Positions 395 to 61,130 of a stretch of 64,000 bases of DNA are shown here, one piece after another; position 1 is the stretch's first letter; each line of letters starts with the position of its first letter. Position numbers and translations under genes: made by a program. The stretch covers positions 18,232 through 82,231 of the forward strand of contig CAZJUB010000004.1 of NCBI GenBank assembly GCA_964549075.1. Direction: 5' to 3'. The notes under the pieces are model-generated. The model was given only the letters and a program-made list of their open reading frames with translations. It was not told the DNA's origin and did no database searches. This stretch comes from an uncultured archaeon (lineage in GTDB: Archaea; Asgardarchaeota; Heimdallarchaeia; Heimdallarchaeales; Heimdallarchaeaceae).

Positions 395-402
395 GTGATA
401 AA

Positions 403-750
403 ATGAAATATGCAATTCCAATTGATACAAATAATGATTTAGATTCTATTGTCGGTCAACACTTCGGTCATGTTCCCTTCTATGCTATCTGGGATCAAGA
501 TTCTGATGAGCTTAACATAGTTGAGAACCAAAGCAACCATAAAGGTGGTTCAGGATTACCAATGGAATTCTTAGCCTCACTTTGTGATGGAGATTTACTC
601 AAAGGAGCTGGATCCAAAGCTGTAATGTTAGGAAAGCAATTAGGCTTAGATGTTTATATGGGTGCTGAAGGTACTGTGAAAGACACTATTCAGAAATTCA
701 TCAATGGTGAGCTTTATGCAGCAACCAAAGATGATGGATGTAATCATTGA
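403..750 (+). CDS. NifB/NifX-family protein
   Basis: MKYAIP, HFGHVPFY, GAGSKA, GTVKD, C-terminal CNH; AGGTGA RBS upstream. Confidence 0.85.
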   Translation: MKYAIPIDTNNDLDSIVGQHFGHVPFYAIWDQDSDELNIVENQSNHKGGSGLPMEFLASLCDGDLLKGAGSKAVMLGKQLGLDVYMGAEGTVKDTIQKFINGELYAATKDDGCNH

Positions 751-764
751 TTGAAGGCAAATTT

Positions 765-1601: not shown

Positions 1602-2497
1602 AAGAAGAAGATGTCAGACAAGTTACCATCATTTCTGGTAAAGGAGGAACCGGCAAAAGTTCATTGATTGCAGCTCTTGCTAGTTATCTTCAAGATCACA
1701 TAATTCTTGCAGATGCAGATGTAGATGCAGCTGATCTTTATCTGATATTTACACCTTCAAAAACTGTAAGTTTTGATTATTATGGCTTACAGAAGGCTTT
1801 CATTGATGAAGAGAAATGCATAAAATGTGGAGATTGTAAAGCTTATTGCCGTTTTGATGCTATTACAGACAATTTGACTGTCAATCCAACTAAATGTGAA
1901 GGATGTTCGCTTTGTTATCATGTTTGTTCTTTTGCTGCAATAACCATGAACGATGTTGTATCAGGTCAGTACTTTATCTCTAGTACAAGAATTGGTGAGA
2001 TGGTTCACGCTAAATTAAATCCAGGGGAAGAAAGTTCTGGTTTACTAGTCGCAGAAGTACGTAAGACTGCAAAAACTGTTGCTGCTAAAAATAACAAACA
2101 GCTAGTGCTTATTGATGGCTCTCCTGGTATTGGTTGTCCTGTTATAAGCTCACTTACAGGAACTAACTTTGCAATTGTTGTAACTGAACCAACTCTCTCT
2201 GGTTATCACGATTTAGATAGAATACTTCAACTTCTTAAGCAATTTAAAATCCCAGGTTTTATTGTTATTAACAGATCAGATATTAACGAAGAGATAGCAC
2301 GAAGTATCCAAGATGAGTTTCATGATACTTATCCTATTATAGGTAAAATCCCTTATAATTCAATTTTCGTGAAAGCTATGCTAGAGAAGAAATCGATAAT
2401 GGAAATAAAATCAGAAGAAAAAGAAGATAAAGATATTCAATCTACAATAGAAAGATTTGGTGATCTTATTCTCGAAAAATTATCGATAAAAGATTAA
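1598..2497 (+). CDS. MinD-superfamily P-loop ATPase with inserted ferredoxin domain (second paralog)
   Basis: SGKGGTGKS, DADVDAADL, two CxxCxxCxxxC motifs, DGSPGIGCP, EPTLSG; overlaps the previous stop. Confidence 0.9.
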   Translation: MKEEDVRQVTIISGKGGTGKSSLIAALASYLQDHIILADADVDAADLYLIFTPSKTVSFDYYGLQKAFIDEEKCIKCGDCKAYCRFDAITDNLTVNPTKCEGCSLCYHVCSFAAITMNDVVSGQYFISSTRIGEMVHAKLNPGEESSGLLVAEVRKTAKTVAAKNNKQLVLIDGSPGIGCPVISSLTGTNFAIVVTEPTLSGYHDLDRILQLLKQFKIPGFIVINRSDINEEIARSIQDEFHDTYPIIGKIPYNSIFVKAMLEKKSIMEIKSEEKEDKDIQSTIERFGDLILEKLSIKD

Positions 2498-2527
2498 CTT
2501 TATAGGTTAGCTTTCTTCTGCTAGCTC

Positions 2528-3358
2528 ATGAACCACACTGAAGCATATTTTACAGGTGCTAAGAACTACCAGATATTTTATCAGAGTTGGGTACCTGATA
2601 AACCAAAAGCTGTTGTTCAGATTATTCATGGTGCCTTTGAACATATAGGTAGATATCAACATTTAACAGACTATTTAGTTTCTCGCAATATTGCAGTTTA
2701 TGGCAATGATCATAGAGGACATGGTAAAAGTGAAGGGAGAAGAAATCATTGTGATAGTTTAGATGATTTAGTTGATGATTGTTACATATTAACTCAAATT
2801 ATTCAAAAAGAGCAGAAAGGTGTGCCTATTTTTGTAGTAGGACACTCTATGGGATCATTTGTTGGACAACGATTTGCTATCAAACATCAAGAGGATTTGA
2901 AAGGATTGGTTCTTTCTGGAACAGGTACTAAAATACCTCCATTACCACCTTTACTAATGATTATTGCACGTATATTGGTGAAAATTTGGCCAACATTCAA
3001 AGGACCATCAGGACTTATTCCAGAGGAAATTTCTTCAGATCCAGAATCAGTAGAAAATTATGTCAATGATCCATTAATTAACTATAAAGAAGCTTCAATT
3101 AAATATGGTTTGAATATGGTTTATAATTATAAAGACATAAAAAATAAGATGTCAACTATCAAAATACCTGTCTTAATCCAAAAAGGCGACCAAGACAAAA
3201 TGGTTATACATCTAGATGAACTAATTGAAGATCTAAAACAAACTGATTTGACAGTGAAAATCTATAAAGATTCAAAACATGAAGTATACACTGAAGTGAA
3301 AGCAAAAAGAGAGGAAGCTTTTTCCGATCTCTTTGAATGGATTAACTCTCATCTTTGA
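2528..3358 (+). CDS. Alpha/beta hydrolase, lysophospholipase/monoglyceride lipase type
   Basis: HGAFEH, DHRGHG, GHSMG nucleophile elbow, GDQD, KHE. Confidence 0.9.
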   Translation: MNHTEAYFTGAKNYQIFYQSWVPDKPKAVVQIIHGAFEHIGRYQHLTDYLVSRNIAVYGNDHRGHGKSEGRRNHCDSLDDLVDDCYILTQIIQKEQKGVPIFVVGHSMGSFVGQRFAIKHQEDLKGLVLSGTGTKIPPLPPLLMIIARILVKIWPTFKGPSGLIPEEISSDPESVENYVNDPLINYKEASIKYGLNMVYNYKDIKNKMSTIKIPVLIQKGDQDKMVIHLDELIEDLKQTDLTVKIYKDSKHEVYTEVKAKREEAFSDLFEWINSHL

Positions 3359-4532
3359 TTGTTTCATCTTCAGGACTTGAGTATTCCTTTATAAGAAGAC
3401 CATCACCAGCATTGATTTTTGCTTCATCTTTTGGAAAGAAGAAGTATTGTCCTTTCTTTCTAACTGCTAAAATTTGGAAGAAATCATCAGTATATTCAGC
3501 TTCTTTGACAGACAATCCGACGTAAGGAGAGTCTTTAGTAACTAGGATATAGTTTACAGCTTCTGAAGAATCATCAACTACATCTTCCAGTAATTCATAA
3601 GGTTTATGTCTTTTAGTAACTCCAAAAGCGATTTTATTTGCTGCATCAGCTATTTCTTCAAATGAATCAGCCATTCTGAGATAACCCATTAGAGTACTAT
3701 CTCCGATTTTATTTTGTTTATAGAGCTTTAATACTTCTTGAATTATCTCATATTGTAGTTTATCGACTCTATCTTCAGTCTGCATAATTAGATTTTTCAC
3801 GTTTGGTAAATCTTCTAATGCAAAAAGATATGCTAAATCAACAATTAGCTCAGAAGATTCTTTCATTGTAACAAGTAAATCTTGATGATACTTCAGTTTC
3901 TCTACTTCTATCTTTCTAGTATCATCGATAATATTTTCTCGGGCTTTATCTACTGAATCAACTCTACCGTTAGCTAATTCTATAAATTGGTTAACATTTT
4001 CTAAAGGTCCTCTAAAAATCAGTAAATCACCACACTTCATGATTTCTTTATAATCCAGTAAAAGACCTTCATTAGGTCGAATTATAGCAGCTACATCTAC
4101 TCCTAACTTATCGTGAATATCAGCTGTAAGCTCCGAAGTACCACAAAGAGGAGATTGTGCTTTTAATTCAACTAAATCTACTAATTGATCTAAATGCTGT
4201 TGAACTATTTTTATTTCATCTTCGATATGTATGTCCATTAGAACCAAAGAAGCTATGTCAGCTGCACTATCTGAGATAAGATTATTTGCTTCTCCTATAA
4301 TATAATAGATTCGCAACTCTTCTGCTTGATTCAAACTTTTAATCGAGACGGATAGTCTATCGAGAAGGTTTTTGTATAGACTATCGATTTTTTCTTCTAA
4401 AACAAGCACTTGTTTTGCTAATAATTTATCTGAATATAGAAGTGATGCAAAAGCTAAATCAACGCAAATTTCTGAGAGCGTTTTCATTTCAATTAAAATA
4501 TCTTTTACACTTATAGGTTCATTGTCGCTCAT
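3342..4532 (-). CDS. PhoU-like plus TrkA-C (RCK_C) tandem-domain protein
   Basis: Two repeats of MKxxSExxVDLAY/F helical bundle, each followed by an RCK_C-like segment (SPLCG/SPYVG…AIIR/AVRK…GD). Confidence 0.75.
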   Translation of the reverse strand: MSDNEPISVKDILIEMKTLSEICVDLAFASLLYSDKLLAKQVLVLEEKIDSLYKNLLDRLSVSIKSLNQAEELRIYYIIGEANNLISDSAADIASLVLMDIHIEDEIKIVQQHLDQLVDLVELKAQSPLCGTSELTADIHDKLGVDVAAIIRPNEGLLLDYKEIMKCGDLLIFRGPLENVNQFIELANGRVDSVDKARENIIDDTRKIEVEKLKYHQDLLVTMKESSELIVDLAYLFALEDLPNVKNLIMQTEDRVDKLQYEIIQEVLKLYKQNKIGDSTLMGYLRMADSFEEIADAANKIAFGVTKRHKPYELLEDVVDDSSEAVNYILVTKDSPYVGLSVKEAEYTDDFFQILAVRKKGQYFFFPKDEAKINAGDGLLIKEYSSPEDETIKDES

Positions 4533-4639
4533 TTCTGATCGAACACTCTTTCATAGATTTATTTCCTCAATCAAATATCAAGTTTTCGCTTTTAGAGGAA
4601 GAAGATAAAGACTTAAAACGAGAAATAAATAGTGTTGTT

Positions 4640-5056
4640 ATGTATAATCAAGAAGAAGAGAAAAGGGGGATTTACTTCGAGAAAAATGAAGTACTTTCTC
4701 TTATTGGTATTTTCTTTCTTGGTTTTTCTACTGCAATGTTTCACCTTATGCGCCAATTTGGCTAGCAAGAATCTTTGAAGTCGATTCTTATTAATATTAG
4801 GTTTTGCAGCTATAATTCCTAATTTTATAATCATAATAGGTACAACTGTATAGGGAATTGCAGTTGATAGATTTGGTAACAAACCCTTTGTGCTAACTGG
4901 GTTATTAGGTTCAGCTATTATGTACTTTACTCTTTTATTTATCAATAAAGCTGTTGTTAGGTTATGCCAATATTTGCAATGATAACCTCGATTTTTCCAT
5001 TATTATTTTCAGGAGTGTTATTCATTTATCTGACAAAGAAAAAAGTATTGTTCTGA
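4640..5056 (+). pseudogene. Degraded MFS transporter remnant
   Basis: MYNQEEEKRG…LIGIFFLGFSTAMF, frameshifts, …IIGTTV*(TAG 4851-4853)GIAVDRFGNKPF (MFS motif A-like), then a short hydrophobic tail ending TGA at 5054-5056; far too short for a 12-TM MFS protein. Confidence 0.65.
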
Positions 5057-5081
5057 AAAAATTTAAGAGGTATAAAAATTA

Positions 5082-5120
5082 CTGGTCATTAGTGACCAGC
5101 AGTTTAAAATCAAGTGACCA
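5082..5120. promoter_or_regulatory. Candidate operator CTGGTCA-TTAG-TGACCAG plus an extra AGTGACCA half-site
   Basis: Perfect 7-bp inverted repeat at 5082-5099 and half-site at 5113-5120, flanking a TTTAAA box upstream of the 5162-6319 gene trio. Confidence 0.6.
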
Positions 5121-5161
5121 ATCATAATTATAAATAGAAAACACAAAGAGGTTTAAAAAAA

Positions 5162-5503
5162 ATGAATATTGATGAACTCGGAGAAAAACTTGGTGAAGAA
5201 ATCGAGAAAAAAATTAAGAAGGAAAAGAAAGATAAAGAAGATCCTGAAGAGATAAGAGAAATTCTCTCGGTTGTAGGTTCTGAAGTTCCTGCATTAATCA
5301 AGAACATTTTCACTGCATTGTATGATCCTGAAATTGCTTCAAATTATGGAAAAGGTATAGTAGCCTTATATGAACAATTGAAAGATAAAGGTATACCAGA
5401 GGATATGCTTAAAGAAATTGTTATGAATTTCTCTAAATCATTTGATGTTGTCGGTAAAGCAATGAAAAATATCAATGTCGATAGAAAAGATGAAGACGAT
5501 TAG
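5162..5503 (+). CDS. Hypothetical helical protein, first gene of a three-gene operon
   Basis: 113-aa charged helical ORF with ATG start. Confidence 0.75.
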   Translation: MNIDELGEKLGEEIEKKIKKEKKDKEDPEEIREILSVVGSEVPALIKNIFTALYDPEIASNYGKGIVALYEQLKDKGIPEDMLKEIVMNFSKSFDVVGKAMKNINVDRKDEDD

Positions 5504-5524
5504 AAATAGCAGTAAGGTGTAATA

Positions 5525-5839
5525 ATGTCAAGTAAATTTTGGAATGTTCTTGTGATTACCTATTACATCTCTTATCTATTTCTAATTATACCTCCTTTAG
5601 CTTTATATTATCTTTTTGCAAATGGGTACAGAAGAAGAAGAAATAAGAGAACTGTAAGTAAAATTCTTAAAAAAGGAGGATTACCTAAAGAGCTCCAAAA
5701 AGGGATTAGACAATCATATAGGGATCAGCTTAAAACTTTTAAAATAATTAACTTGGTCAAAAATAGCAAGGGGATAAAAGGCTCTAAAGATGAGGATAAA
5801 ACTAATTTCGCTGGTTTTTTTAAATTCACAACGTCATAA
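5525..5839 (+). CDS. Hypothetical single-pass membrane protein with basic cytoplasmic tail
   Basis: N-terminal hydrophobic helix followed by RRRRNKR; AAGGTG RBS. Confidence 0.7.
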   Translation: MSSKFWNVLVITYYISYLFLIIPPLALYYLFANGYRRRRNKRTVSKILKKGGLPKELQKGIRQSYRDQLKTFKIINLVKNSKGIKGSKDEDKTNFAGFFKFTTS

Positions 5840-5848
5840 GTGATTTCT

Positions 5849-6319
5849 ATGTCTGAGGATGAACAAAATTTGGAGGAAAGAATTGCAGATTTAGAGGAAA
5901 AGATAAACTATGTTATCCTTCAGATTAACAATCTTCAACATAAAGTTTCAGATAGTAATCCTGAATTAAAACAGATGATGAATCTATTACAAATATTAAC
6001 TTCAACACTTCAGATTTCTAAAGCTCCTTTCACCATACTTAATCAAACTTTTTCTTTAAATGAGCGGATACACCAAAGATTCCCGGAACTCAAATATGAC
6101 AATATTTCCAAAGTTATTGTAGATATTCTAGGTAAAAAAGGTAATTTGAACATTTCACAGCTAACTGAACAAGTTCGAAAAGAAAGAGGTTCTGCTTCTA
6201 GAAGGATAGTAAGAGAGAGAGTGGACATACTTATAGATTCAGGAATTATCCGTGAAGTTGATCATGGTTATGGAAGACAGATTGAACTTATAGAACCTGA
6301 GGAAGAAGGAGAAGAATAG
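5849..6319 (+). CDS. Coiled-coil plus winged-helix DNA-binding protein (putative regulator)
   Basis: N-terminal heptads; C-terminal NISQLT…SASRRIVRERVDILIDSGII wHTH. The GTGAT at 5840 is read as RBS with ATG at 5849. Confidence 0.7.
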   Translation: MSEDEQNLEERIADLEEKINYVILQINNLQHKVSDSNPELKQMMNLLQILTSTLQISKAPFTILNQTFSLNERIHQRFPELKYDNISKVIVDILGKKGNLNISQLTEQVRKERGSASRRIVRERVDILIDSGIIREVDHGYGRQIELIEPEEEGEE

Positions 6320-9520: not shown

Positions 9521-10012
9521 TTGCCTAGAGATTTCAAATTATTTTATGGAGAAAAAGTGCCTGATGAGATATCAGACCATGTTGAAAGGCACTTAAACGA
9601 CACTTTTGGAATTCATTTTAGGTCAGTCGGACTTCGATTACCCAGTCAAATTTCTTGGGTTGCTACGGCTAATGCTTATGATGCAAAAAGCTTAATTGCT
9701 AATATTAATGCAGATAGAATCAACTTCTGTATGTGGCTGATTGCTTATCCTATTGTAGTGAATGGAAAATCTGTCTTCGGATATGCTGAACCTCTTAATG
9801 GTGCTGTTATCTCTACCACAAAAATGGCTACAAGAACTTTAATTGCTAAAGAAGTTGCTCATTTTGTTGGTATTGTCTTAGGGTTAACCAATTGTAAGAA
9901 TAATTGTTTAATGACAGAAACTGAAAGTTTTGAAAGGTTGGTTCAAAAGCCTTCTTATTTATGTGATTCATGTAAAATTAGATTTCAGAAACTTAAAATT
10001 AGGTATATGTAA
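9521..10012 (+). CDS. Archaemetzincin (M54)-like protein with degenerate catalytic site
   Basis: VFGYA…AVIST…KEVAHFVGIVLGLTNC-x3-CLM-x17-CDSC; TTG start. Confidence 0.75.
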   Translation: MPRDFKLFYGEKVPDEISDHVERHLNDTFGIHFRSVGLRLPSQISWVATANAYDAKSLIANINADRINFCMWLIAYPIVVNGKSVFGYAEPLNGAVISTTKMATRTLIAKEVAHFVGIVLGLTNCKNNCLMTETESFERLVQKPSYLCDSCKIRFQKLKIRYM

Positions 10013-10086
10013 TCTGCCATACTTGATGTACCAAAGTTTTTGAATAATATCTTTATCTTAAAATTAAAGCTATTCAGGAGAAAGTA

Positions 10087-12045
10087 ATGAGTATTCTAGC
10101 TTACCTTGAGAAAATTCTACATAAAATCGACAAAGTGTTGTTGAACCAAGGTTATACGGAAGATGAATTACATCAAGAAGGATTTCGAATTCTTGGAGAA
10201 TTATATTTACTCAGTAGTTTGGAAAGAAATGGTTTGTTAAATGCAAATGATAGTTTTCAAAATAAGCAGAAAGAAGTCGTAAATTCTTTTCCAACGATCT
10301 TATCAGGAAAAATAGATACTTTATGCAGTAGTGCTTATGATGATTTACTTAAGCTTAGAGAAAATTATCAAAAAGATTCTCAACTAGATATTCTTGGATC
10401 TTTATATCAGAATGTTCTTACAAGATGGTATATCCAAGATCAAGGGATTGTTTTTACACCTGTACCAATTGTAGAGTATATACTATCTCAAATAGACTTT
10501 CAATTAAATTCATTTCAAAAAGATGAGAATATAATTGATTTATCATGTGGTTCAGGAATTTTTCTTCGTAAAGCTGCAGAGAACGCAATTAAAAGTGCTA
10601 TCTTTAAGAATGAAGAATATAATTTTATCCAAGAATACGTAAATAAAAACATTATAGGTTTTGATATTGATCCTGATGCGATTTTTATTTCTCACATCAG
10701 TTTAACAGATCTTTTAATAGAAAAACTAAAACAAAATTACTCATTAGATATTAAATTTAATCCTAAAATTTTCCAAACAAATTCTTTAGTTGAGAATGAT
10801 AAAAATGATATCTTAGAAGTACAGAATCTCAAACATTCAAAGTTTAATTATGTAGTTGGTAATCCGCCTTATATAGAATCCAAAATTATGGATGAAGAAA
10901 CTAAACAAATATGTATTCAGCATTTTCCTGAAGCAGCTAGGGGTCATTTTGATGTTTATTCATGTTTTCTATCTTTAGGAACAAGAGTATTAACGAAGGG
11001 TGGAAAATTAGGTTATATTATTCCAAATAAATTTCTCAGCTCTAACTATGCTAGAAAACTAAGAGAAAAATATCTCTCTTCAAACTGTATTTCTCAGATA
11101 GTTGATTTATCACATAATGGTGTATTTCAACCTGCAGTATACCCTATAATTTTGATAATAGATAATCAAAATACTTTAAAAAATAGCATCAAAATTTCTC
11201 GAGCAAAAAGCCTTAACGACTTATCTCTTGATACTTTTTCTCATAACACAAAGATCGTAAAAACGAGTAATTTTCTTAAAACTTATAATAAAACAATTTT
11301 CATCCTTGAAAATCCAATATTAGATATGGTAAACAGGATTTTCTCAGCGAGTTCTTTGACTTTAGGTGAGTTAGTTAGATTTCGGTGGGCAATTTCGTTT
11401 CATAGAAAAGGATTGCGGGAATTGTTTGTATCAAAAGTCCCTCGAGGACACTCTCCTGTTAAATTTCTTGGGGGTAAAGCTTTTGGAGGAAATAGAGAAA
11501 TCAATCGTTATAACTTAAATTGGAAAGGTTATTGGATTGATTACGACCATAAAAAAGCAAAAAGTGTTAGGAATAATTTTCCTGATTATGAGTATTTTAA
11601 AAAAGAGAAAATTATAATTTGTCAGCATGCATTAAGAATAAGAGCAACAGTAGATTATGAAGGATATGCATGTAAAGATATTTTTATTATTGGGCATCTT
11701 ACAAAGAAATCAAGAGAATTAAGGATTAGTCTAGAATACATCCTAGCGTTACTAAATTCAGAACTATATAGTCATCTCTATTCAAATATGTATTCTAGTA
11801 CAGAAATTATGGGTAAATATCTTCACTACTTACCAATGTATCTACATGATCTTCCCGTAATAAAACCTACAGAAAGCGACATTGTATATCTAGAAAGTTT
11901 GGTGAAAAAAAGATTACAACAAGCAAGTGATGAGTTCTCCTCAATTGATGAAGAAATTGATCAGAAAGTCTATGAAATTTACAATTGTAGCAAAGAAGAG
12001 ATAGAACTAGCAAAAAAACATATAAAAGAATATCTAGTGAAATAA
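10087..12045 (+). CDS. Amino (N6-adenine/N4-cytosine) DNA methyltransferase, Eco57I/TaqI-like, with C-terminal target recognition domain
   Basis: GIVFTP, DLSCGSGIF (motif I), GFDID, VGNPPY (motif IV), LLNS…YL..LP, EIDQKVYEIY. Confidence 0.9.
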   Translation: MSILAYLEKILHKIDKVLLNQGYTEDELHQEGFRILGELYLLSSLERNGLLNANDSFQNKQKEVVNSFPTILSGKIDTLCSSAYDDLLKLRENYQKDSQLDILGSLYQNVLTRWYIQDQGIVFTPVPIVEYILSQIDFQLNSFQKDENIIDLSCGSGIFLRKAAENAIKSAIFKNEEYNFIQEYVNKNIIGFDIDPDAIFISHISLTDLLIEKLKQNYSLDIKFNPKIFQTNSLVENDKNDILEVQNLKHSKFNYVVGNPPYIESKIMDEETKQICIQHFPEAARGHFDVYSCFLSLGTRVLTKGGKLGYIIPNKFLSSNYARKLREKYLSSNCISQIVDLSHNGVFQPAVYPIILIIDNQNTLKNSIKISRAKSLNDLSLDTFSHNTKIVKTSNFLKTYNKTIFILENPILDMVNRIFSASSLTLGELVRFRWAISFHRKGLRELFVSKVPRGHSPVKFLGGKAFGGNREINRYNLNWKGYWIDYDHKKAKSVRNNFPDYEYFKKEKIIICQHALRIRATVDYEGYACKDIFIIGHLTKKSRELRISLEYILALLNSELYSHLYSNMYSSTEIMGKYLHYLPMYLHDLPVIKPTESDIVYLESLVKKRLQQASDEFSSIDEEIDQKVYEIYNCSKEEIELAKKHIKEYLVK

Positions 12046-12070
12046 GTGAGAGAAATAAAAACATCTGAAC

Positions 12071-14110
12071 TTGGTTGAGTTTATGTCAAAAGAGAGTACC
12101 GATGAGGTGATAAGTTCTTTTCAGGAGTTCATAAATAATCACCCAAAGCTACAAAAATCCTATGAAATCACCCGTTCTTTCCTTCATCGAAAAAGTACGG
12201 AAGGTAGCGAAGCTTTTAGAGAAAGTATGAGTAAAACTTGGTTTTTTACCCGAGAGAATATTATTCCTTATTTTGCTCCTCTTGCTTTCATCTTTCTATT
12301 GTTTTATTTCATATTTTTATACCCATTTATCAAACTATTTACTTGGTTATATCGAATTCTTTTACCTCCTAAGTTTCGTAATAATTTAAAGAAAGTTTCA
12401 TTTATCATTATTGCAGGTTTATTTACTTTTGTGTCAGTTGTAGGAAAGATACTTTTAGTTATTTATGATATCTTAGTTCCAACAGGATTACGAGAACTTG
12501 TACCTCTTCTTCAATTGTACAGAAAATATGTGTTAGTTATTTCAAATATCTTATCTGGAGAGAAATCTCAAGAGATTATGGAAGTATCAGAAGAGCTAGA
12601 TGAATTGATGCTAAAAGAACAAAAAATGATAAAGAATTATCCTATTAGAAGAGGAGTAGGTGAGGTCATCAATTTAGCTGTTACTCCTTTGGTATTTATA
12701 GCAATACCTACTCTTATTGTACGTATTTTTCGAATAGGTTATGCAACACTATTCTTTACTATAGATAAACTTTCAACTCTTGGTCCTCTAGGTCCTCATA
12801 ATTATCTAAGGTACTTTGATTTACTCAGATTGATTCAGGATTTAACAGGTTTAGGACCTATCTATTCTGTAGCTTTATTTGGTACTGGCTTACTTCTTGC
12901 AAGTTGGATCGCAACCATATTTGGACCAATTTATGCAGTATTTCACAGCTGTAGTGTTACCTTGATGAGGTTTGGATCATATCGTTGGGCTAATATTTAC
13001 CAAAGTCTAGAAAATTTCTTTTCTCTTCCTTATTATGCTGCAAAATCATCTTTCAGTTTCTTTGATGCTCCTCCGATATCAATCGAAACGTACAAGGATT
13101 TTAAATTGGTAATTGAGGATGAAGTAGATACGATAAAAGAGAAAGTTCAATCACTTATTGTTTTAGATAGTGTTAAAGTCCCTGAACGTTCCAAAGAGAT
13201 GTTAGAAGATCTTTTAGGGAAAGCTGAATTGACTTTAAATGAGCTTGATATTTCACGAATAGAACAAGAAACAGCTCGAACATTTGCACTTCTTATTTGG
13301 AGTAAAGAAGCATCAATTTTTCCTTGGATATCAAATGAAGCTAAAAGCACATTCGCTAAACAAAATGATATGTCTGTTGAAGAAGTAGGAAAAGCTTTTA
13401 GTTTGATTCTAAAGAAAATTGATGAAGGGTATCTCACAGATGATCTTTTTTCGTCTGTTTTAATAACCGGAGCTTTGAAAGGTATTAACGATCAACAAAA
13501 GAAATACAAACAGCTATTAGATGATATCGAATATAACAAACTAGCTATTTCCTTAGCTCTAGGAGCAAGACAATATCTAAAGGATCAATTTGCAAAAAAA
13601 CCTTGGTATAAGAAAATTGGAAAGAAGATTTTAATTTCATTAATTGCTCCTTTTATGCCTTTAGCTGTTATAATTCTAGCATTTTATAACTATTTCAAAC
13701 ACATAATTTTGTCAACATTAAAAGCAATCATTGCTTTAGGAACAACCCGTGTAGGTCGTTTTATTTCTAGAAGATTTCTAGAAATTCGTGATACCATCAT
13801 AACTACTTTTGACACAGTATCTTCGATGGGAAAAGAATTTAGCTTCAAAGAAGATTTGAATATAGATTTTAACAAGGCTCTCAAAATAACTGGAAAGATA
13901 ATATTTAGACTAATCTTTTTTGTACCAGTACTTCTTTATTCTCTTTACAAAACAATAAGAAGATTATTTTACAGGATCTTTAAAAGGAGAAGTGAGGAGG
14001 AAGGGATGAGAAGAAGGTTTGAAAGAGAATTAGCAAAAGCATCTCTTGTGGCAATGTATCAAGAGATTTATGATAAAATGTTAATCTCAGACTTATTAAT
14101 TACAGATTAA
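12071..14110 (+). CDS. Uncharacterised multi-pass membrane protein, paralog A
   Basis: Several hydrophobic/amphipathic segments; strong blocks shared with 14121-15911; alternative ATG at 12083. Confidence 0.8.
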   Translation: MVEFMSKESTDEVISSFQEFINNHPKLQKSYEITRSFLHRKSTEGSEAFRESMSKTWFFTRENIIPYFAPLAFIFLLFYFIFLYPFIKLFTWLYRILLPPKFRNNLKKVSFIIIAGLFTFVSVVGKILLVIYDILVPTGLRELVPLLQLYRKYVLVISNILSGEKSQEIMEVSEELDELMLKEQKMIKNYPIRRGVGEVINLAVTPLVFIAIPTLIVRIFRIGYATLFFTIDKLSTLGPLGPHNYLRYFDLLRLIQDLTGLGPIYSVALFGTGLLLASWIATIFGPIYAVFHSCSVTLMRFGSYRWANIYQSLENFFSLPYYAAKSSFSFFDAPPISIETYKDFKLVIEDEVDTIKEKVQSLIVLDSVKVPERSKEMLEDLLGKAELTLNELDISRIEQETARTFALLIWSKEASIFPWISNEAKSTFAKQNDMSVEEVGKAFSLILKKIDEGYLTDDLFSSVLITGALKGINDQQKKYKQLLDDIEYNKLAISLALGARQYLKDQFAKKPWYKKIGKKILISLIAPFMPLAVIILAFYNYFKHIILSTLKAIIALGTTRVGRFISRRFLEIRDTIITTFDTVSSMGKEFSFKEDLNIDFNKALKITGKIIFRLIFFVPVLLYSLYKTIRRLFYRIFKRRSEEEGMRRRFERELAKASLVAMYQEIYDKMLISDLLITD

Positions 14111-14120: not shown

Positions 14121-15911
14121 TTGCGGAACATTAAAATTCTTTTAAGAAAATGTTTTTCAATGTCTTCTAGTGCTAATGTCAATCAAGCAGATGAAGAAAT
14201 AACTGAAAAAGAAGAAGAGATAAACAAAGAAGTATCTGAGGGAACTGGAGAAGAGGAGGAAAAATTTCAAAGTAAAAAGAAAGGCAAATTTACCTTTACA
14301 ATTCTTTCTGTAATAATATCAATTGTTTCTATTAGCACAAAATTCATGATAATTATTTATGATATTTTCATCCCAAAAGCACTTCGTGAATATGTTCCTT
14401 TTCTAAATATGGTTCGTAAAATTGCTTTACCCATTTCAGAGATACTTGCAGGAAAGAAATCAAAAGAAATAACTGAGGTAACAAATGAACTTGATGAATT
14501 GGATATTCAAAAAGAGAAGGTAATGAAAGCTTATCCTCTTCGAAGAACTATTGGGCAAGCGATAAGTATGGGTGTTTCTCCTCTTATTCTAATTGTAATT
14601 CCAACTATTATTTGGGGTGACACTTTGATCGACAAAATCCAACTAGCTCTTAATATACCAGAAGATTATCAATGGGTAATTTTTCTGCTATTGGGAACTA
14701 TTATGTTGATTTTATCATGGATTGTAACCGTTTTCGGACCGTTTTATGTTATTTTTCATAATTCGAGTAAATATATGCTAAAATTAGGAGCTTACAGGTG
14801 GGCAGCCATATTTCAAGATTTAGAAAATCTATTTGCTATCCCTTATTTTACTGCTAAATCTTCGTTTAGTTTTTTTGATGCACCTCCAATCTCAAGTGAG
14901 ACTCTAGAGGAATTTAAACTAGACATTAAAGACGAAGTAGAAACAGTTAAAGAGAAAGTGGAAGGATTGCTTGCACTCGACACGAAGAATGTTCCTGATC
15001 GATCAAAAGAACAGCTTGAGAAACTCCTCAAGAAAATAGAGATCCCATTGGAAAAATTAGATTTATCCAAAGTTAAAGATAGTACTGCTAGAACATTTGC
15101 ATTATTAATCTGGTCTAAAGAATCATCTATTCTTCCCTGGAGAAGACAAGATGCGTTAGAGAAATTTGCTGAAAGAAATAATCTAACTAATCAAGAAGTC
15201 AAGGAAGCTTTCATTCTCTTAAACAAAAAGAGAAAGGAAGAAGGTATATCTGAGGAAACTGTCAAGTCAATTCTTGTTACAGGAGCACTAAAAGGAATTG
15301 AGAAACAAGAAGAGAAATATGAACAAATAATGACAGATATTGAAGCTAACAAACTAGCCATTTCTTTAGCATTAGGTACAGAACAATATTTAGAAGACCT
15401 TTACTCAACACTTCCATTATTCTTAAAGATTCTAAAGGAAATTAGTTTTTCAATTTTAGCCTTTTTAATGCCATTTCTGCTTATAATTATAGCAATTTTA
15501 CTTTACATCAAACATGTCATCTTTACTCTGTTCAAGACATTATTTTCAAAAGATACCTTAAGGATTCATAGATATATTAAGAAAAGATATAAAGAAATCA
15601 AAAACACACTAGAAGAAACTTATCAATCTGTAAAAGAAAAAGGTAAGAAATTCAATTTCAAAGAAGATGTCGATATCGATTTCAAAGGCTTTTTCAAGAA
15701 AATTGGAAAAGGTTTCTTGAAACTTATTCTCGCTCTTATTAAATTAGCAATTCTATGGCCTTTATGGAAATCACTCTATATTCGTATAGCTAAACTTGTT
15801 GCAAATCGAAAACCAGAAGCAAAGATGAGAAAGATGTTTGAGAAAGAGCTCACAACAGAATCGTTGATTTTCATGTATCAAGAAGTATATGATAGATTAA
15901 TTATTCAATAG
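14121..15911 (+). CDS. Uncharacterised multi-pass membrane protein, paralog B
   Basis: Shares GxYRWA, AKSSFSFFDAPPIS, TARTFALLIWSKE, TGALKGI, NKLAISLALG, MYQExYD with paralog A; alternative ATG at 14160. Confidence 0.8.
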   Translation: MRNIKILLRKCFSMSSSANVNQADEEITEKEEEINKEVSEGTGEEEEKFQSKKKGKFTFTILSVIISIVSISTKFMIIIYDIFIPKALREYVPFLNMVRKIALPISEILAGKKSKEITEVTNELDELDIQKEKVMKAYPLRRTIGQAISMGVSPLILIVIPTIIWGDTLIDKIQLALNIPEDYQWVIFLLLGTIMLILSWIVTVFGPFYVIFHNSSKYMLKLGAYRWAAIFQDLENLFAIPYFTAKSSFSFFDAPPISSETLEEFKLDIKDEVETVKEKVEGLLALDTKNVPDRSKEQLEKLLKKIEIPLEKLDLSKVKDSTARTFALLIWSKESSILPWRRQDALEKFAERNNLTNQEVKEAFILLNKKRKEEGISEETVKSILVTGALKGIEKQEEKYEQIMTDIEANKLAISLALGTEQYLEDLYSTLPLFLKILKEISFSILAFLMPFLLIIIAILLYIKHVIFTLFKTLFSKDTLRIHRYIKKRYKEIKNTLEETYQSVKEKGKKFNFKEDVDIDFKGFFKKIGKGFLKLILALIKLAILWPLWKSLYIRIAKLVANRKPEAKMRKMFEKELTTESLIFMYQEVYDRLIIQ

Positions 15912-17120: not shown

Positions 17121-17684
17121 TCACCAATCTATTCCAAAAATTATTTCTAGTTCGAAAGGACTTATTATTTTTCCTTGATTGAAGTTCAAAAGTGTAATCC
17201 TATTGTTCAGATAAGATTTCAAATCTTTTATAATAACCTCATATCCCTCTTTATCAACTTCTTTATCAAGATGTAGCGTAACAGTAAAAATCTTCATGGC
17301 ACTATCATATTCAGTTTCAACATCAGCAACTAAATGAGCGAAGAATCTTGAGTTAAACATTTCATCTATTTCATTATATCGTTCTGTTAAAAACCACGCA
17401 GGAACTAATTCTTCCTCTTCTTCTGCAACTTCCTTATATGATTTTTTCTTCTTATCATGATATACACTAAGTAATTTAAAAATAAGCTCATCTACTCTGA
17501 GCTTAAGATATTCATTCAAGGTTTCACTTTTCAACAGCTTTGCTTTGACATGTTCAAAGTAATCTGAGAACATGTCGTCACTATAATGAATCATCTTTGA
17601 ATCAAACCAATTTCCTACTGTTTCCAGAATCGAATTCAGGTCCAATTCAAAAATCAATGTTTCAACCTTTTCTTCATCACTCAT
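17121..17684 (-). CDS. Hypothetical acidic cytoplasmic protein
   Basis: Long ORF with GTGAT RBS then ATG; no motif recognised. Confidence 0.65.
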   Translation of the reverse strand: MSDEEKVETLIFELDLNSILETVGNWFDSKMIHYSDDMFSDYFEHVKAKLLKSETLNEYLKLRVDELIFKLLSVYHDKKKKSYKEVAEEEEELVPAWFLTERYNEIDEMFNSRFFAHLVADVETEYDSAMKIFTVTLHLDKEVDKEGYEVIIKDLKSYLNNRITLLNFNQGKIISPFELEIIFGIDW

Positions 17685-17858
17685 TGATATCACTTTTATG
17701 AAGTGAGATTAGTATACTTAATCCAAACTTGTTTAAATAGTATTCTGTGATATCAAGAAAATTTATTTAGAAAAAGGATAGTAATTGAATATATTAAATT
17801 GTATTACCCTTACATTAAGCTTTATTAGTTACAAAAATCAGAAAATAATAGGGGTTCT

Positions 17859-20800
17859 ATGAAATTAAATTTTTCAACTGCTATTATCATCAGTATTGTA
17901 TTTACATCCTTTCTTCTTAATCCACAATTGATCTCATTAATAAATAAATCTAATAATCAATCAACAGAATCAAGTCCAGAAACGCAAACAAATAATATTC
18001 CTAATTATGATGACGATGTTTCTACCATTAAAAAAATTGAAACACCAGGTCATTATGCATTAAAAGCATTTTTTTCACAAAATAACATCATAAATATAGG
18101 TCCTGAAGGCGATGCTTTAGAATGGGTTAGCTATGATGACATACGATATTCAGGATGGTCAAGTAGTTATTCAACCATGGATTTCAGAATTGATAGTAGT
18201 TACACATATAATCCTGATTGTTGGCCAAATCAAGTTGATACATATACCTACATGAGAGATAATGGATATCCCTATCCTGTTTCAGTAATGTATAGCCCTG
18301 TTTTTGAAGAAGAAACATATATTCAAGGTAAAGTTCATTTTTTGACATATCTTCGAACAAATTTCGATTATGCTTATTCATTAACTATAACTTTTCGAAT
18401 TAGACTCATGCTTTTCAATACTACAGATTCAACATCATCAGAGATTATATCGATAGAAGATGATTTAGGTTATGATGATTACACACAAGCAATTACTTAT
18501 GATTACACCTTAGGTTCGCCAGTAACAATACCAGCTGGATTTCGGCTTAAAGTAGCTTATGATGCAAAATTATCTACTCTAAGTTATTCTGGAAATATGT
18601 TTCTATATGCAGGAGACAGAGGATATAACACTTTACATTGGAATATTTATGATGGAGATTATTCTGCGTATTATTCAATATCAAGTACTGATGAGATTTT
18701 AGGAGTTCAATTCGATATGTATGATACCATTTATCCTAATATCATAACTTCAGGATTTAGTAATAACACTATTTATCAAGAAAATAAAACAATTTCAATT
18801 GATGTATCAGGAGCAGAAGATAGTTCCTATACTTGGGATTATGGAACACCTGTTAGTTTTGGTACTTATACAACCACAGATTTACCTTTTACCATGGGCT
18901 GGCACACTTTAGCAGTACAAGCTCTAGATGAGTATGAGAACAACAAGACAATGATTTATGAAATAGGTTATGATGGTTCAATAATTAATATTGCTCTTCA
19001 GAGTCCAAGTAACAATTCAGTTGTTGGTAAAGGAGAAATTCTTGATTTTGAGATATTTAGTATAGATTATGCAACGTATGAATGGGATAATAGTGGAACG
19101 CAAAATAATTTAACATCACCAGAATATGACATTATTGCGCCAGCATTTGATGGAATTCACAATTTAACAATTACAACACATGATGTTTTTGAAACTAAAT
19201 CTTTCTATTATGAATTTAATTTTGATGGTATAGCACCAGCTATAAATCTCGTAGATGCTAGTGTGTCTAACAATTCTATACAACCAGCTGGGAAACTCAT
19301 TGACATCAATGTAACAGATCCTGTAGGAGTAGCTGAAGTGTATTATAAATGGGATTCAAGAGATAATTTTACTTGGTATGCTTTTGATGGATCTATCTAT
19401 AGAACATATTTACCAGAATCGGCTGGAGTTCATACCCTTTATGTCTCAGCTAAAGATAATTATGACAATGCAATTAGTTTAGTTTTCCGTTTTACAGCTC
19501 AATTAAATCAAATATTAGTGGAATTAAGAAATGTTAATGACAACTCATACTTTCAAGGTAACAATGTTATAGAAGTAACTATGCTTGGAATTAATAATAC
19601 GATAAAATATAAATGGGACTCAGGAAGCGAATTAGATGGTTTATTAGATGCGTTTTATGTTAATTCAACGTTGATTCTAAATGGAACTAATGTTCTTCCT
19701 TATTCACCCTTAGGAGAACATTATTTGACTATTAGAACCTTTGATACATCTGATATGCAGCATATTTATATTTTTAAATTTACTTTGGATAGAGAAGCTC
19801 CTGTAATTCTCACAGACAAACTGGAATATGATGGGAAAAGATTTCTTGATACTGATACTTTACAATTTTCTTTTAGTGACAATTTTGCTTCAGTGTCTCA
19901 GTTAGATGTAATCCTTTCTGTTGATGGAATTACAAACCATTCTCTTATATACCCTTACAATTTTAATCTTCTCTCACTATCTGATGGAACATATAATTTA
20001 ACTATATATGTTTATGATATTGCAGATAATTTCGCGATAAGATCCTATCTAATAACTATAGATAATACTGCTCCTGAGATAGAAATCATTAATATGGAAG
20101 ATATAGTTTATCTGCAAGGTCAGTATTATATTCCAGGTGATTTTAATGTATCTGTCTTAATAACAGATGATGATAGTCAGATTAACAGTACATATTCATG
20201 GGGAGGAACAGAATATAATGATTTCAGTAATTCTTTCATCTTAAGTTTTATAGATGGAACTTCAGTCTTGTATATAAATGCAAGTGATTCTTTAGGAAAT
20301 CATGAAGAAATTTCTATAACATTAACAATAGATAGTACAGCTCCTATATCCACCTTAGTCTTTCCTTTTATTAATTCTAAAATCAATAGTAATACAACTT
20401 TAGATTTTGTTATTGAAGATATATCAAGAGCTACAATTGAAACTATATATTATACGTGGGATTATATTCCAGCAGCTATATTTTTTCCATTAACATTTAA
20501 TAGTCTAGGCGAAGCAACATTCGATGGATATCCAGAATCTTTCTATCCAGCAAATGGCACAACAGCTGTTTTGTCAGTTTATGTAGAAGATATAGTTGGG
20601 AATAACCATACATATACATATAGTTTTGTTGTTGATAATGAAGGACCAAATTATAATCTGCAACTATACAACGAGGATACTGAACAATGGGAAATTCTAA
20701 AAATTACAGAGACTTATCTTATAACTAATGATTCATTGATTAGAATAGTTGCAGAAAATACTGAAGATACTTTTAATTATTTCTGGAATAATGAAACAGA

Positions 20801-22217
20801 TAGACCAATAAACAAATCGACTTGGTTAATTTCCGATGTTCCAGATTATGGTTTAGTCAATTTAACAATTGTTGCTAATGATGACTCTGGAGAAAGATTA
20901 TTTCCAAATGAAAAAATTATTACATTTCACTTTACTAATAAAAAAGAAGGTGCTCTTATAATTCTAAACTCCAATGATCAAGTAATATATGGAGATAATC
21001 TTAGAGTTCGAGTAGTTTTACAAGATGACCTATCAAATAATCAATCTATTATCAAAATTTCTGTGAACGGAACTTCTTTATCTTTCTCTTTAGAAACTGC
21101 AAGTATTTATTATTTTGACTATACTATACGAAAGTCTAAGGGTAATTATAACTTACAAATAATAGCTGAATCAGATCTTTATTTTGGTAAAACAAATAAT
21201 TCCTTAATCTATAATTTTGTCGTTCTTCCGCTTCCTCTCAATTTAACTATTGCTTCTTCAAGCTTAGAAGTAATAGCTGGTTCAGCAGTAGAATTAACAG
21301 GAACATTGACTTTCCTAAATGGAACCCCAGTTGAAGATATGGATTTAATTTTCAATTTTTACATTTATTATAAGGATAATAGTTTTTTCACTATTACAGC
21401 AGCATTTACTGATTATGATAATATTACAACTCGTACTGGGCAAACAAATTCTTATGGTATTGCAACAGTAACTTTTACCCCAACAGAAGATTTGGACCAT
21501 ATTTCAGTAGATGTTTCCTTTGAAGGAAGTGATATATTAGGTAATATCTCTTTAGATTTTTCACAGTCAATTGTGGTTATTAAAGCAGGTTTACAATCTT
21601 GGCTTTTATATACAATTATAGGTGGAAGTTTAGTTATTATAGCTATAGTATCTCTAATAATATACAGAGCAACTAGATCAACTCCTTTTGAAGATCTTCT
21701 AAGTAAAGTTACAGAAGAGGATGTGATGATAAAACTCCAAGAATTTTGTCCGGGTGTGATTCTTACTATTTTTGATCAAAGGCAAGGTGCTATACCTATT
21801 CTAACTGATCATTCATTCGGATTTGACCATAGTGGAAGAATTGCTTTAGAGTCAGATAATTTCATACTGAAAGTATCTGACCAAGCCTTTTCAGCTCTGG
21901 GATTTGAAGAAACACTTCAAGGAAGAAGATTGGGTTCGTTAACACTTCCAAATGAATCTATGCTAGGTTTTCTCCAAGGTATTCAAATACAGAATAAAGA
22001 AGCTAGAGGAGGACTTGAAAATCTTGTTCTCGTAGTTTTAACTGATTTAGAATATGGTACAACATTATTAACCTACCAAGAGTATTTACATCCATTAATA
22101 GATGATTTACAAGCAATGCTTCAAGAGAAAAAACCTTTGAAGGAAATTGAAAGTCAGATGAGAGTAATTAGACTTCAAGCTGTAAAAGTAATTTTAGCTG
22201 GATACGAATTAGAATGA
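17859..22217 (+). CDS. Large type I membrane protein: signal peptide, beta-rich Ig-like repeats, one TM helix, cytoplasmic uDENN/longin-like domain
   Basis: Repeated YxWD…G(x)HxLxVxAxDxxxN…DxxAP units with many NxS/T sequons; TM at about aa 1248-1269; cytoplasmic TIFDQRQGAIP…EARGG. Confidence 0.85.
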   Translation: MKLNFSTAIIISIVFTSFLLNPQLISLINKSNNQSTESSPETQTNNIPNYDDDVSTIKKIETPGHYALKAFFSQNNIINIGPEGDALEWVSYDDIRYSGWSSSYSTMDFRIDSSYTYNPDCWPNQVDTYTYMRDNGYPYPVSVMYSPVFEEETYIQGKVHFLTYLRTNFDYAYSLTITFRIRLMLFNTTDSTSSEIISIEDDLGYDDYTQAITYDYTLGSPVTIPAGFRLKVAYDAKLSTLSYSGNMFLYAGDRGYNTLHWNIYDGDYSAYYSISSTDEILGVQFDMYDTIYPNIITSGFSNNTIYQENKTISIDVSGAEDSSYTWDYGTPVSFGTYTTTDLPFTMGWHTLAVQALDEYENNKTMIYEIGYDGSIINIALQSPSNNSVVGKGEILDFEIFSIDYATYEWDNSGTQNNLTSPEYDIIAPAFDGIHNLTITTHDVFETKSFYYEFNFDGIAPAINLVDASVSNNSIQPAGKLIDINVTDPVGVAEVYYKWDSRDNFTWYAFDGSIYRTYLPESAGVHTLYVSAKDNYDNAISLVFRFTAQLNQILVELRNVNDNSYFQGNNVIEVTMLGINNTIKYKWDSGSELDGLLDAFYVNSTLILNGTNVLPYSPLGEHYLTIRTFDTSDMQHIYIFKFTLDREAPVILTDKLEYDGKRFLDTDTLQFSFSDNFASVSQLDVILSVDGITNHSLIYPYNFNLLSLSDGTYNLTIYVYDIADNFAIRSYLITIDNTAPEIEIINMEDIVYLQGQYYIPGDFNVSVLITDDDSQINSTYSWGGTEYNDFSNSFILSFIDGTSVLYINASDSLGNHEEISITLTIDSTAPISTLVFPFINSKINSNTTLDFVIEDISRATIETIYYTWDYIPAAIFFPLTFNSLGEATFDGYPESFYPANGTTAVLSVYVEDIVGNNHTYTYSFVVDNEGPNYNLQLYNEDTEQWEILKITETYLITNDSLIRIVAENTEDTFNYFWNNETDRPINKSTWLISDVPDYGLVNLTIVANDDSGERLFPNEKIITFHFTNKKEGALIILNSNDQVIYGDNLRVRVVLQDDLSNNQSIIKISVNGTSLSFSLETASIYYFDYTIRKSKGNYNLQIIAESDLYFGKTNNSLIYNFVVLPLPLNLTIASSSLEVIAGSAVELTGTLTFLNGTPVEDMDLIFNFYIYYKDNSFFTITAAFTDYDNITTRTGQTNSYGIATVTFTPTEDLDHISVDVSFEGSDILGNISLDFSQSIVVIKAGLQSWLLYTIIGGSLVIIAIVSLIIYRATRSTPFEDLLSKVTEEDVMIKLQEFCPGVILTIFDQRQGAIPILTDHSFGFDHSGRIALESDNFILKVSDQAFSALGFEETLQGRRLGSLTLPNESMLGFLQGIQIQNKEARGGLENLVLVVLTDLEYGTTLLTYQEYLHPLIDDLQAMLQEKKPLKEIESQMRVIRLQAVKVILAGYELE

Positions 22218-54205: not shown

Positions 54206-54256
54206 ATTTCAATACTAGCCAAAAGAATAAAAAATAGTAGAAATGTCTGATAGATA

Positions 54257-55873: not shown

Positions 55874-55905
55874 AAATTAAAAATATGCTTTCTTTTTAAG
55901 AAGTA

Positions 55906-59444: not shown

Positions 59445-59452
59445 TGTTTCAC

Positions 59453-59923: not shown

Positions 59924-59932
59924 ATTAATCAC

Positions 59933-60415: not shown

Positions 60416-60560
60416 TATAATAAGTTTGTTTTTGTAGAATTTAAAGTCTAGTTTCTAACAAAAAAGTCTGGATAACATCTCAGTATTAAAGATTTGAAAA
60501 CATAAGCTGAAACACAATAAACTTTAAATGTATTTGTTACTAAATTTTATCGTATTAACG

Positions 60561-61121: not shown

Positions 61122-61130
61122 GAAAGAGAA

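Follow-up and report, generated by a model that had tools for sequence, protein, structure and literature searches.

Asgard surface proteins with a membrane-anchored cytoplasmic longin domain, often encoded beside Rag-type GTPase genes

What does the small cytoplasmic tail of a very large archaeal surface protein act on? The question is raised by a gene in a stretch of 64,000 nucleotides (nt) from an uncultured archaeon of the Heimdallarchaeaceae (contig CAZJUB010000004.1); this whole stretch is referred to as the window. From the sequence alone, an original prediction had described the gene product as a surface receptor with a folliculin/SMCR8-type uDENN domain in its tail, that is, as a membrane-bound GTPase-activating protein (GAP). 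In our reading, the tail is a membrane-anchored longin domain that binds Rag-type GTPases through a conserved face and is probably an arginine-finger GAP, and we put the probability of this reading at about 0.55. The evidence comes from the fold predicted for the tail, from residues that are invariant across a family, from the genes next to the receptor gene in its relatives and from a model of a tail-GTPase complex. The features that the argument uses are located as follows.

17859..22217, + strand: the whole gene, encoding a type I membrane protein of 1452 amino acids (ectodomain, transmembrane helix and longin tail), from the translation and from 61 other homologous representatives with the same tail.
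17859..17948, + strand: N-terminal hydrophobic segment resembling a signal peptide, amino acids 1-30, read from the translation.
21606..21662, + strand: single transmembrane helix, amino acids 1250-1268, with a Kyte-Doolittle window mean of 2.56.
21669..22214, + strand: cytoplasmic longin domain, amino acids 1271-1452, from an AlphaFold2 (AF2) model with a predicted local distance difference test score (pLDDT) of 91.8 and a predicted TM-score (pTM) of 0.88, and from Foldseek.
21771..21797, + strand: F1305-D-Q-R-Q-G1310-A-I-P1313, the position of the 'GP motif', running from the end of strand 1 through a loop to the start of strand 2, from conservation and the model.
22002..22022, + strand: the loop A1382-R1383-G-G-L-E-N1388 between strands 4 and 5, with the candidate arginine finger R1383 (22005-22007), from conservation and the model.

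The open reading frame (ORF) starts with ATG in the ORF list and its translation. A frame of 1452 codons in window DNA of 31% G+C, with 61 other homologous representatives, is not a product of chance. The protein has the layout of a type I single-pass surface glycoprotein, much as had been predicted. Its N-terminus is hydrophobic and signal-like at about residues 5-25 (judged from the translation), and a Kyte-Doolittle scan finds one strong transmembrane helix, followed by R1270 and R1273 and then by a tail of 182 residues. The ectodomain of 1217 residues contains 33 N-x-S/T sequons, as compared to 18.6 +/- 3.7 in shuffled sequences (0 of 2000 shuffles reach 33), and the tail contains one. The tail is placed on the cytoplasmic side because of the arginines after the helix, this contrast in sequons and the GTPase genes that are its partners in relatives. 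A signal-like N-terminus is also present in 18 of the 20 proteins of the same clade (clade A, see below) that are longer than 1400 residues and have a closed 5' end. The exceptions are L022 (loci of relatives are numbered L001 onward), which has no such segment at its called start, and L027, in which the segment is located further in.

The AF2 model of the tail, built from a 22-row alignment, begins with two short helices and continues with the elements β-β-α-β-β-β-α-α. In DSSP, with tail numbering, these are E29-36, E40-48, H62-77, E87-93, E98-108, E116-126, H127-152 and H157-181. The tail therefore has a five-stranded sheet in longin order, the defining feature of the longin fold. The arginine loop sits between E98-108 and E116-126 (pLDDT of 89 for this block).

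A Foldseek search of the Protein Data Bank (PDB) finds as the top match 8yqg, the longin domain of a Lokiarchaeota Roadblock-Longin protein (E = 7e-6; TM-scores of 0.59 by query, TMq, and 0.67 by target, TMt; 14% identity). The next matches are 8dhb_J (from the active FLCN GAP complex, E = 2.9e-3), the Lst4 longin 4zy8 and 6ulg_N (from the FLCN-FNIP2-Rag-Ragulator complex), and further matches include the GATOR1 chains 9o5d_D, 9o5a_H and 9v0j_A, the SEA chain 8adl_S and 6v4u_A, with SMCR8-C9orf72 among the entries matched. Roadblock proteins appear far down the list, with MglB (3t1r) and LAMTOR (6ehp) at ranks 39-41. Among Pfam families, PF11704 (Folliculin) is the only recurrent one, with matches in 4 of 22 and 13 of 32 tails (best E = 6.7e-4), all of them under the 23.3-bit cut-off; the matched stretch spans the arginine loop, and the runner-up family matches 2 tails. 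The window tail does not reach the Pfam gathering score of either PF11704 or PF06218 (NPR2). A language-model search for look-alikes of the tail gave leads below 0.9 only, to small proteins of Promethearchaeota and to one cluster with NPR2 in 19% of its members (score 0.81). Of the folliculin/SMCR8-type uDENN domain that had been proposed, the longin fold holds up, with matches to FLCN/FNIP, NPRL2/NPRL3 and SMCR8/C9orf72. The uDENN/DENN part does not, as the window protein has no Pfam match to either and its chain ends at residue 1452 with the longin helices. The tail can thus be assigned to the folliculin/NPRL2/SMCR8 class of longins from its predicted fold, but not from its sequence.

The longins of DENND10 (8p0v_M), DENND1B-Rab35 (3tw8_C) and TRAPPII (7u06_D) are also among the Foldseek matches of the tail. 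They would favor a different role, in which the tail is an exchange-factor-like platform or a sensor of nucleotide state and binds a nucleotide-free or GDP-bound GTPase, like the longins of DENN proteins, Mon1-Ccz1 and TRAPP. However, these matches rank under the FLCN, Lst4 and GATOR1 chains, and the sole recurrent Pfam lead is Folliculin. The neighboring genes, described below, also bear on this role.

F1305 (nt 21771) and R1383 are located where the original prediction had put them, and both strings that it quoted are present in the translation. The strand-F-x4-G-P motif that it read at F1305 needs correction: the window protein has G1310-A1311, and the proline of that reading is P1313. PMC12290439 places a GP motif in the loop before strand 2 or where this strand begins, and describes it as a mark of GAP-type longins only. 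In the tail model G1310 is at the start of strand 2, so that the G-P position, with Ala in the window tail, coincides with the published location.

Relatives of the tail were collected in two ways. A phmmer search with the tail against 1.84 billion representatives, independent of any motif, found 62 proteins at E <= 1e-3, the window's own included, of which 36 are at E <= 1e-10 and 25 at E <= 1e-30. The match is C-terminal in all 62, in proteins of up to 2596 residues. A transmembrane helix lies just N-terminal to the domain in 54; in the remaining 8 the protein is a short fragment or its hydrophobic stretch is weaker. The second collection came from a genome scan with one genome per species, in which the motif F-D-Q-x-x-G-x-x-P was the search pattern; the best 80 of 89 confirmed stretches gave 73 loci in 41 genomes, which together with the window make up the set of 74 tails. 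A survey of Asgard genomes for fusions of an ectodomain, a transmembrane helix and this domain had been suggested, and such fusions are the rule: the longin directly follows the helix and ends the protein in 73 of 73 loci. Family proteins with a closed 5' end have 632 to 3096 residues, and some with an open 5' end exceed 3500.

By the titles of their records, 36 of these loci are Heimdallarchaeota or Heimdallarchaeum, 15 Hodarchaeota or Hodarchaeum, 11 Promethearchaeota or -ati, 5 Thorarchaeota, 4 Hermodarchaeota and 2 uncultured archaeon. The family is restricted to Asgard metagenome-assembled genomes, mostly with Heimdall or Hod labels. One member, P0116, is labeled 'Planctomycetota bacterium' in NCBI, probably through a binning error; every other named match is Asgard. 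The named matches are all 'hypothetical protein', and no named relative was found among them.

The candidate arginine R1383, the conservation of which had been put forward as a check, is invariant in all 74 tails. In the rest of its loop (tail numbering), G114 and E117 are also present in 74 of 74, G115 in 72 and N118 in 70. Moreover, D1341 (tail D71) and F1349 (tail F79) are each found in 74 of 74. The pattern F-D-Q-x-x-G-x-x-P, including a glycine equivalent to G1310, is in 74 of 74 by construction, as it was the search pattern; among the proteins that phmmer found independently it is just as well conserved. A tree of the tails has three well-supported clades (A, B1 and B2), with the window in clade A as the sister of L001 (76% identical).

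Some relatives depart from the common layout. One search for stand-alone relatives returned a single fragment. Another, word-indexed and of limited reach, returned 110 short matches, those named in NCBI being mostly 'partial'. Of four short matches that were inspected, three start in or just before the transmembrane helix, and the fourth is P0200, a 311-residue protein of Hodarchaeales with the longin behind a 130-residue N-terminal region that has no obvious transmembrane helix. Its motifs are variant (FFEP..GP.P and VRGGMDN), and it is the sole apparently soluble relative seen. In addition, the paralogs P0122-P0125 (164-312 residues) share the membrane-proximal ectodomain module and the transmembrane helix, end about 18 residues past the membrane and have no longin.

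Which GTPase, then, would such a tail act on? ORFs of at least 80 amino acids located within 6 kb of each of the 74 genes were clustered, and the largest cluster of neighbors consists of Gtr1/RagA GTPases (52 ORFs, at 30 of the 74 loci). The PF04670 cut-off was passed by 16 of 18 cluster members tested (E = 1e-23 to 5e-39); the two that did not pass are fragmentary, with 123 and 135 residues. These genes lie close to the receptor gene: Rag-like ORFs number 29 of 85 within 300 nt of it, 20 of 104 at 301-2500 nt and 3 of 177 beyond 2500 nt. Genes further out are common to at most 6 loci.

The arrangement is most regular in clade A. Among the 24 loci of this clade with at least 2 kb of downstream sequence, 19 have a Rag-like gene 39-133 nt downstream on the same strand, and in 18 of those 19 a second, convergent Rag-like gene comes next, encoding 279-432 residues (406-432 residues except for one cut by the contig end). 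The first of the two encodes a Rag-type G domain with P-loop, DxxGQ and HKxD motifs, a low-complexity stretch rich in Pro and Glu, and a short conserved C-terminal motif; its conserved middle region we read, from the sequence, as roadblock-like. The paired genes may encode a heterodimer like RagA/RagC. In clade B2, Rag genes adjoin the receptor gene in varied layouts (downstream on the same strand, convergent, or upstream), and the state of Rag adjacency has changed at least 10 times on the tail tree. The link to small GTPases proposed in the original prediction is supported by this gene neighborhood in relatives and by the complex model described below.

In clade A, 17 loci have both a closed 5' end and an upstream flank of 1 kb or more, and at 14 of these the gene directly upstream of the receptor gene encodes a divergent Ras/Rab-like small GTPase of 239 residues. 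Its motifs are GDGxxGKTH (P-loop), PGQKG and GTHxD. A block of four genes is seen in L003:5210-13302, with the 239-residue GTPase (5210-5929), the receptor-longin (tail at 10001-10543), the Rag-like protein with the Pro/Glu-rich region and C-terminal motif (10606-12078), and the convergent Rag-like protein of 406-432 residues (12079-13302, - strand); the same block is found in L006, L010, L012, L017, L023 and L028-L031. The upstream gene could be taken in favor of an exchange-factor-like tail. The linked GTPases are mainly Rag-type, however, and the known longin regulators of Rags are GAPs; together with the order of the structural matches, this makes such a role very improbable in our view, and leaves GAP-type binding of a Rag-like GTPase as the preferred reading.

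The contact between tail and GTPase was modeled with a natural pair from L003, the complete genome of Ca. Heimdallarchaeum aukensis. The model contains two copies of the L003 tail (32-row alignment), residues 21-225 of the downstream Rag-like protein (19 rows), GTP and Mg. The complex has a score of 0.73 (0.75, 0.73 and 0.64 in the three runs), as compared to 0.31 for the best of 3 controls, with at least 86% contact agreement among the runs and a partner pLDDT of at least 86. In one copy of the L003 tail the interface is formed by residues 34-39, 70, 73-74, 77-81, 112-115 and 117. At an offset of +1 these correspond to F1305-G1310, D1341, F1344-S1345, G1348-T1352, R1383-L1386 and N1388 of the window protein, which are the invariant motifs. 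The GTPase contributes residues 49-50 (P-loop), 71-82 (switch I) and 97-100 (switch II). The second tail copy likewise touches the GTPase, the presence of two copies being an assumption of the input. The model supports binding of the tail to the GTPase, without showing it.

Both the adjacency of the genes and this interface would also fit binding without catalysis. The longin could be a non-enzymatic membrane anchor or scaffold, which recruits Rag-like GTPases, in the manner of Ragulator at the lysosome or the EGO complex at the vacuole, or marks the place of the surface protein, with the arginine serving in binding or in the structure of its loop. Longin and roadblock domains are often platforms (PMC10933270), and the protein itself supplies the membrane anchor that is missing from the soluble GAP complexes of eukaryotes. 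On the other hand, the G-P motif with an invariant arginine is reported to be specific to GAP-type longins and is not found in the longins of FNIP2, NPRL3, TRAPP and DENND proteins (PMC12290439). The R, G and E of ARGGxEN, present in 74 of 74 tails, are also conserved more strictly than a docking surface usually needs. We consider a purely anchoring role rather unlikely.

In the GAP reading that we prefer, two tails, of the same protein or of paralogs, would form a platform, the conserved face of which (FDQxxG(P/A)xP, SDxxFSxxGF and ARGGxEN) would bind the P-loop, switch I and switch II side of a Gtr1/RagA-family GTPase. R1383 would act as an arginine finger and speed the hydrolysis of GTP. 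The receptor would in this way hold Rag-like GTPases at the cell membrane and control which nucleotide they carry, and binding or clustering of the ectodomain may be what it responds to. The window copy, which has no neighboring GTPase gene, would use a Rag-like GTPase encoded elsewhere.

Several observations weigh against this reading. The window tail has no Pfam match (E up to 1) and no NCBIfam match, and FLCN, NPRL2 and SMCR8 were not found among PDB sequences by phmmer and two family profiles, which gave chance-level matches only. The Foldseek scores of the eukaryotic chains are modest (E about 1e-3 to 2e-2, TMq 0.4-0.5, root-mean-square deviation (rmsd) 4-9 Å), and these matches are at the level of the PDB entry, the subunit identity of each chain not being given. 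At tail position 41, 69 of the 74 tails have Pro, whereas the other 5 have Ala, among them the window tail (A1311), where the invariant proline is P1313. The tail in the complex model is that of a paralog, 56% identical to the window tail, and its two copies are assumed. The score mark used for such models is reached by 116 of 157 solved complexes and by 2 of 215 mismatched pairs, counts that are only rough here because our own alignments were used and a small molecule was along (small molecules are unscored). Complexes of longin and roadblock proteins with GTPases have already been solved, so the pass of the model may reflect likeness to them.

The gene neighborhood is not uniform either. No Rag-like gene was found in the 64-kb window by tblastn with the 52 neighbor GTPases (E = 1e-3), and none of the remaining ORFs of the window matches a Rag, roadblock or longin family in Pfam. 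No partner longin gene was found adjoining the receptor gene. The window locus is syntenic with that of its closest relative, L001, but in L001 two additional genes lie immediately upstream of the receptor gene, one of which, 87 nt away, encodes a Rag-like GTPase of 180 residues. A Rag neighbor is also missing at L002, L004, L008 and L014. In clade B1 (13 loci), none is present at the 11 loci with flanks long enough to judge. The ORF upstream of the window gene (17121-17693, - strand, 190 residues) was also considered and rejected; it has neither a family assignment nor a P-loop.

These loci without a Rag neighbor (the window, L002, L004, L008, L014 and the 11 of clade B1) are what a structural surface protein or adhesin would lead one to expect, with a tail unrelated to GTPases that functions in sorting, assembly or attachment to the cytoskeleton, and with Rag adjacency as inherited synteny. 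Ig-like ectodomains such as this one are widespread among proteins of the cell surface, and the short-tailed paralogs keep its membrane-proximal part without the longin. However, the adjacency is retained in 19 species-level genomes of clade A while genes further out are shared by few loci, it recurs in the differing arrangements of clade B2, and it falls off steeply with distance from the receptor gene. Moreover, the strict conservation is on the face that is set against the GTPase in the model. An adhesin of this type is improbable in our estimate, and a tail that binds a Rag-type GTPase remains the reading followed here.

In clade B1 the receptor-longin gene has a very large gene on either side (of about 1900 and 1000 codons), with gaps or overlaps of about 4 nt, and neither of these flanking genes has a Pfam match. 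This layout is seen in L034, with 151-5898 and 10535-13525 as the flanks, and is repeated in L040, L041, L043, L050 and L063. It looks like an operon of surface proteins.

The ectodomain of the window protein comprises a head and a stalk.

18006..18758, + strand: N-terminal jelly-roll head, all-beta, amino acids 50-300, from an AF2 model on a 19-row alignment (pLDDT 86.3, pTM 0.84).
18756..21008, + strand: stalk of tandem immunoglobulin (Ig)-like repeats, amino acids ~300-1050, from Pfam, NCBIfam, a Y-x-W-[DNG] motif and sequon enrichment.

Foldseek with the head (residues 50-300) finds generic jelly-rolls only, such as the cocaine esterase C-domain and TNF/C1q-like folds (TMq <= 0.44, rmsd ~8-12 Å), and therefore no ligand can be named. 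In the stalk, Big_3_3 at residues 698-783 (E = 4e-8) is the sole ectodomain family above the Pfam cut-off. Matches below the cut-off are to Big_13, Big_1, PKD and Big_7 in Pfam and to OmpL47-type barrel models in NCBIfam. The motif Y-x-W-[DNG] occurs seven times across residues 324-974, with a spacing of 83-109 residues in five of the six gaps and 195 residues in the other. No internal repeats were detected in the window protein by blastp at E = 1e-2. The best explanation is that the jelly-roll head is carried on a stalk in which some nine or ten Ig-like domains follow one another.

The rest of the window carries archaeal housekeeping genes, for example for CDP-archaeol synthase, and one Ras-family GTPase gene (60528-61121, + strand). 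The original prediction had offered this GTPase as a partner of the tail, a choice that the data do not favor: it is Ras/Rab-type (Ras E = 2.9e-45, as compared to only 4.4e-5 for Gtr1_RagA), it is located 38 kb away from the receptor gene without linkage, and the GTPases linked to the family are of the Gtr1/RagA type. Its gene is convergent with that of a 688-residue beta-helix/TSP3-repeat protein (61131-63197, - strand), and 60528-63197 is another case of a small GTPase gene adjoining the gene of a probable surface protein. A gene for an Eco57I/TaqI-type DNA methyltransferase at 10087-12045 is followed by two large ORFs without Pfam matches (12071-14110 and 14121-15911), which cluster together and with L001:73-1824. 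Three tandem arylsulfotransferase-like genes are found at 52610-57504 (+ strand), and three tandem AhpC/TSA peroxiredoxin genes at 58980-60415 (- strand), with a nitroreductase gene beside them at 58407-58970. The segment 38661-39667, about 1 kb, has no ORF of 100 or more amino acids. Searches for tRNA and for Rfam families found none anywhere in the window.

The window family resembles the longin GAPs of eukaryotes, FLCN-FNIP (acting on RagC/D), NPRL2-NPRL3 of GATOR1 (RagA/B) and SMCR8-C9orf72 (Arf), in its predicted longin fold, in a Gly-Pro/Ala motif at the start of strand 2 and in an invariant candidate arginine that the model puts on the same face. It is linked genetically to Rag GTPases. 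In the model the GTPase is bound by two longins, much as C9orf72 and SMCR8 together hold ARF1 through their longin domains, Arg147 being placed in the active site (PMC8213707). In comparison, the eukaryotic GAPs are soluble and heterodimeric, with DENN or NPRL2-specific domains after the longin, whereas the window family has a lone terminal longin behind a transmembrane helix and an ectodomain of 1250 residues, and no above-threshold sequence match to them. The Lokiarchaeota longin 8YQG, the best structural match, is dimeric by its entry title and differs in its low sequence identity and in being soluble; a literature search by PDB code found no paper on the function of this protein. In Ragulator/EGO and MglB-MglA, roadblock/longin-type dimers likewise keep a small GTPase on a membrane or serve as its GAP. 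They differ in their roadblock topology, in their lipid or peripheral anchoring and in having no ectodomain, and their fold ranks far lower.

Plexins are receptors that cross the membrane once; they combine an Ig-like/IPT ectodomain with a cytoplasmic GAP domain that acts on a small GTPase and is switched by dimerization, and the same receptor-GAP logic is proposed for the window protein. To our knowledge plexins are eukaryotic only, their GAP domain has a RasGAP-like fold, and we know of no homology between them and the window family. By analogy with such receptors, outside-in signaling is plausible.

Longins of this kind have been described in Asgard archaea before. PMC12290439 (Traffic, 2025) reports 15 Asgard longins of 'FLCN/SMCR8-type', notably in Heimdallarchaeia, with the GP motif and an arginine finger, and poses as a question whether their client GTPases are Arf-related or Rag. 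Liu et al. (preprint of 2020, 10.1101/2020.10.19.343400) report Asgard NPRL2-like longins fused to two-component signaling domains, as well as FLCN-like longin-DENN proteins. The proteins of these two sources share with the window family an Asgard origin, and the passages that describe them mention neither a membrane-spanning or ectodomain-bearing longin nor Rag adjacency; they were compared by description, and the sequences may overlap. In one Lokiarchaeon, as noted by Tran et al. (PMC10933270), longin and roadblock genes do not as a rule share an operon with GTPase genes, and partners cannot be guessed from the layout. No description of a transmembrane or ectodomain-bearing longin, or of Rag adjacency, was found in full-text searches of papers that are open without subscription. 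Neither a membrane-bound longin nor Rag adjacency is mentioned in the accessible parts of PMC13734099, PMC12962969 and PMC10307638. New here, at the level of the family, are the adjacency to Rag-type GTPase genes and the membrane-anchored form of the longin-GAP kind.

The longin-domain GAPs FLCN, GATOR1 and C9orf72-SMCR8 control Rag and Arf GTPases at the lysosome. For one lineage, the family described here answers the questions of client GTPase and genome layout: the longin is tied to the membrane behind an ectodomain, and Rag-type genes are next to it in 19 species-level genomes. It also provides named pairs of regulator and GTPase that can be tested, for example in Ca. Heimdallarchaeum aukensis (L003). 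A broader scenario is possible, which we offer tentatively and hold to be doubtful as a whole. The family would be a module of the Heimdall group that runs from a surface receptor to Rag, in which the ectodomain senses a ligand, contact or clustering and the folliculin-like longin is an arginine-finger GAP on the adjacent Rag-like pair; the eukaryotic FLCN/GATOR1-Rag axis of nutrient sensing would descend from such a receptor system of the plasma membrane, which would later have been internalized to the lysosome. If the activity is confirmed, the family would be the first receptor-type GAP outside eukaryotes, and would bear on the origin of Rag signaling and of endomembrane identity.

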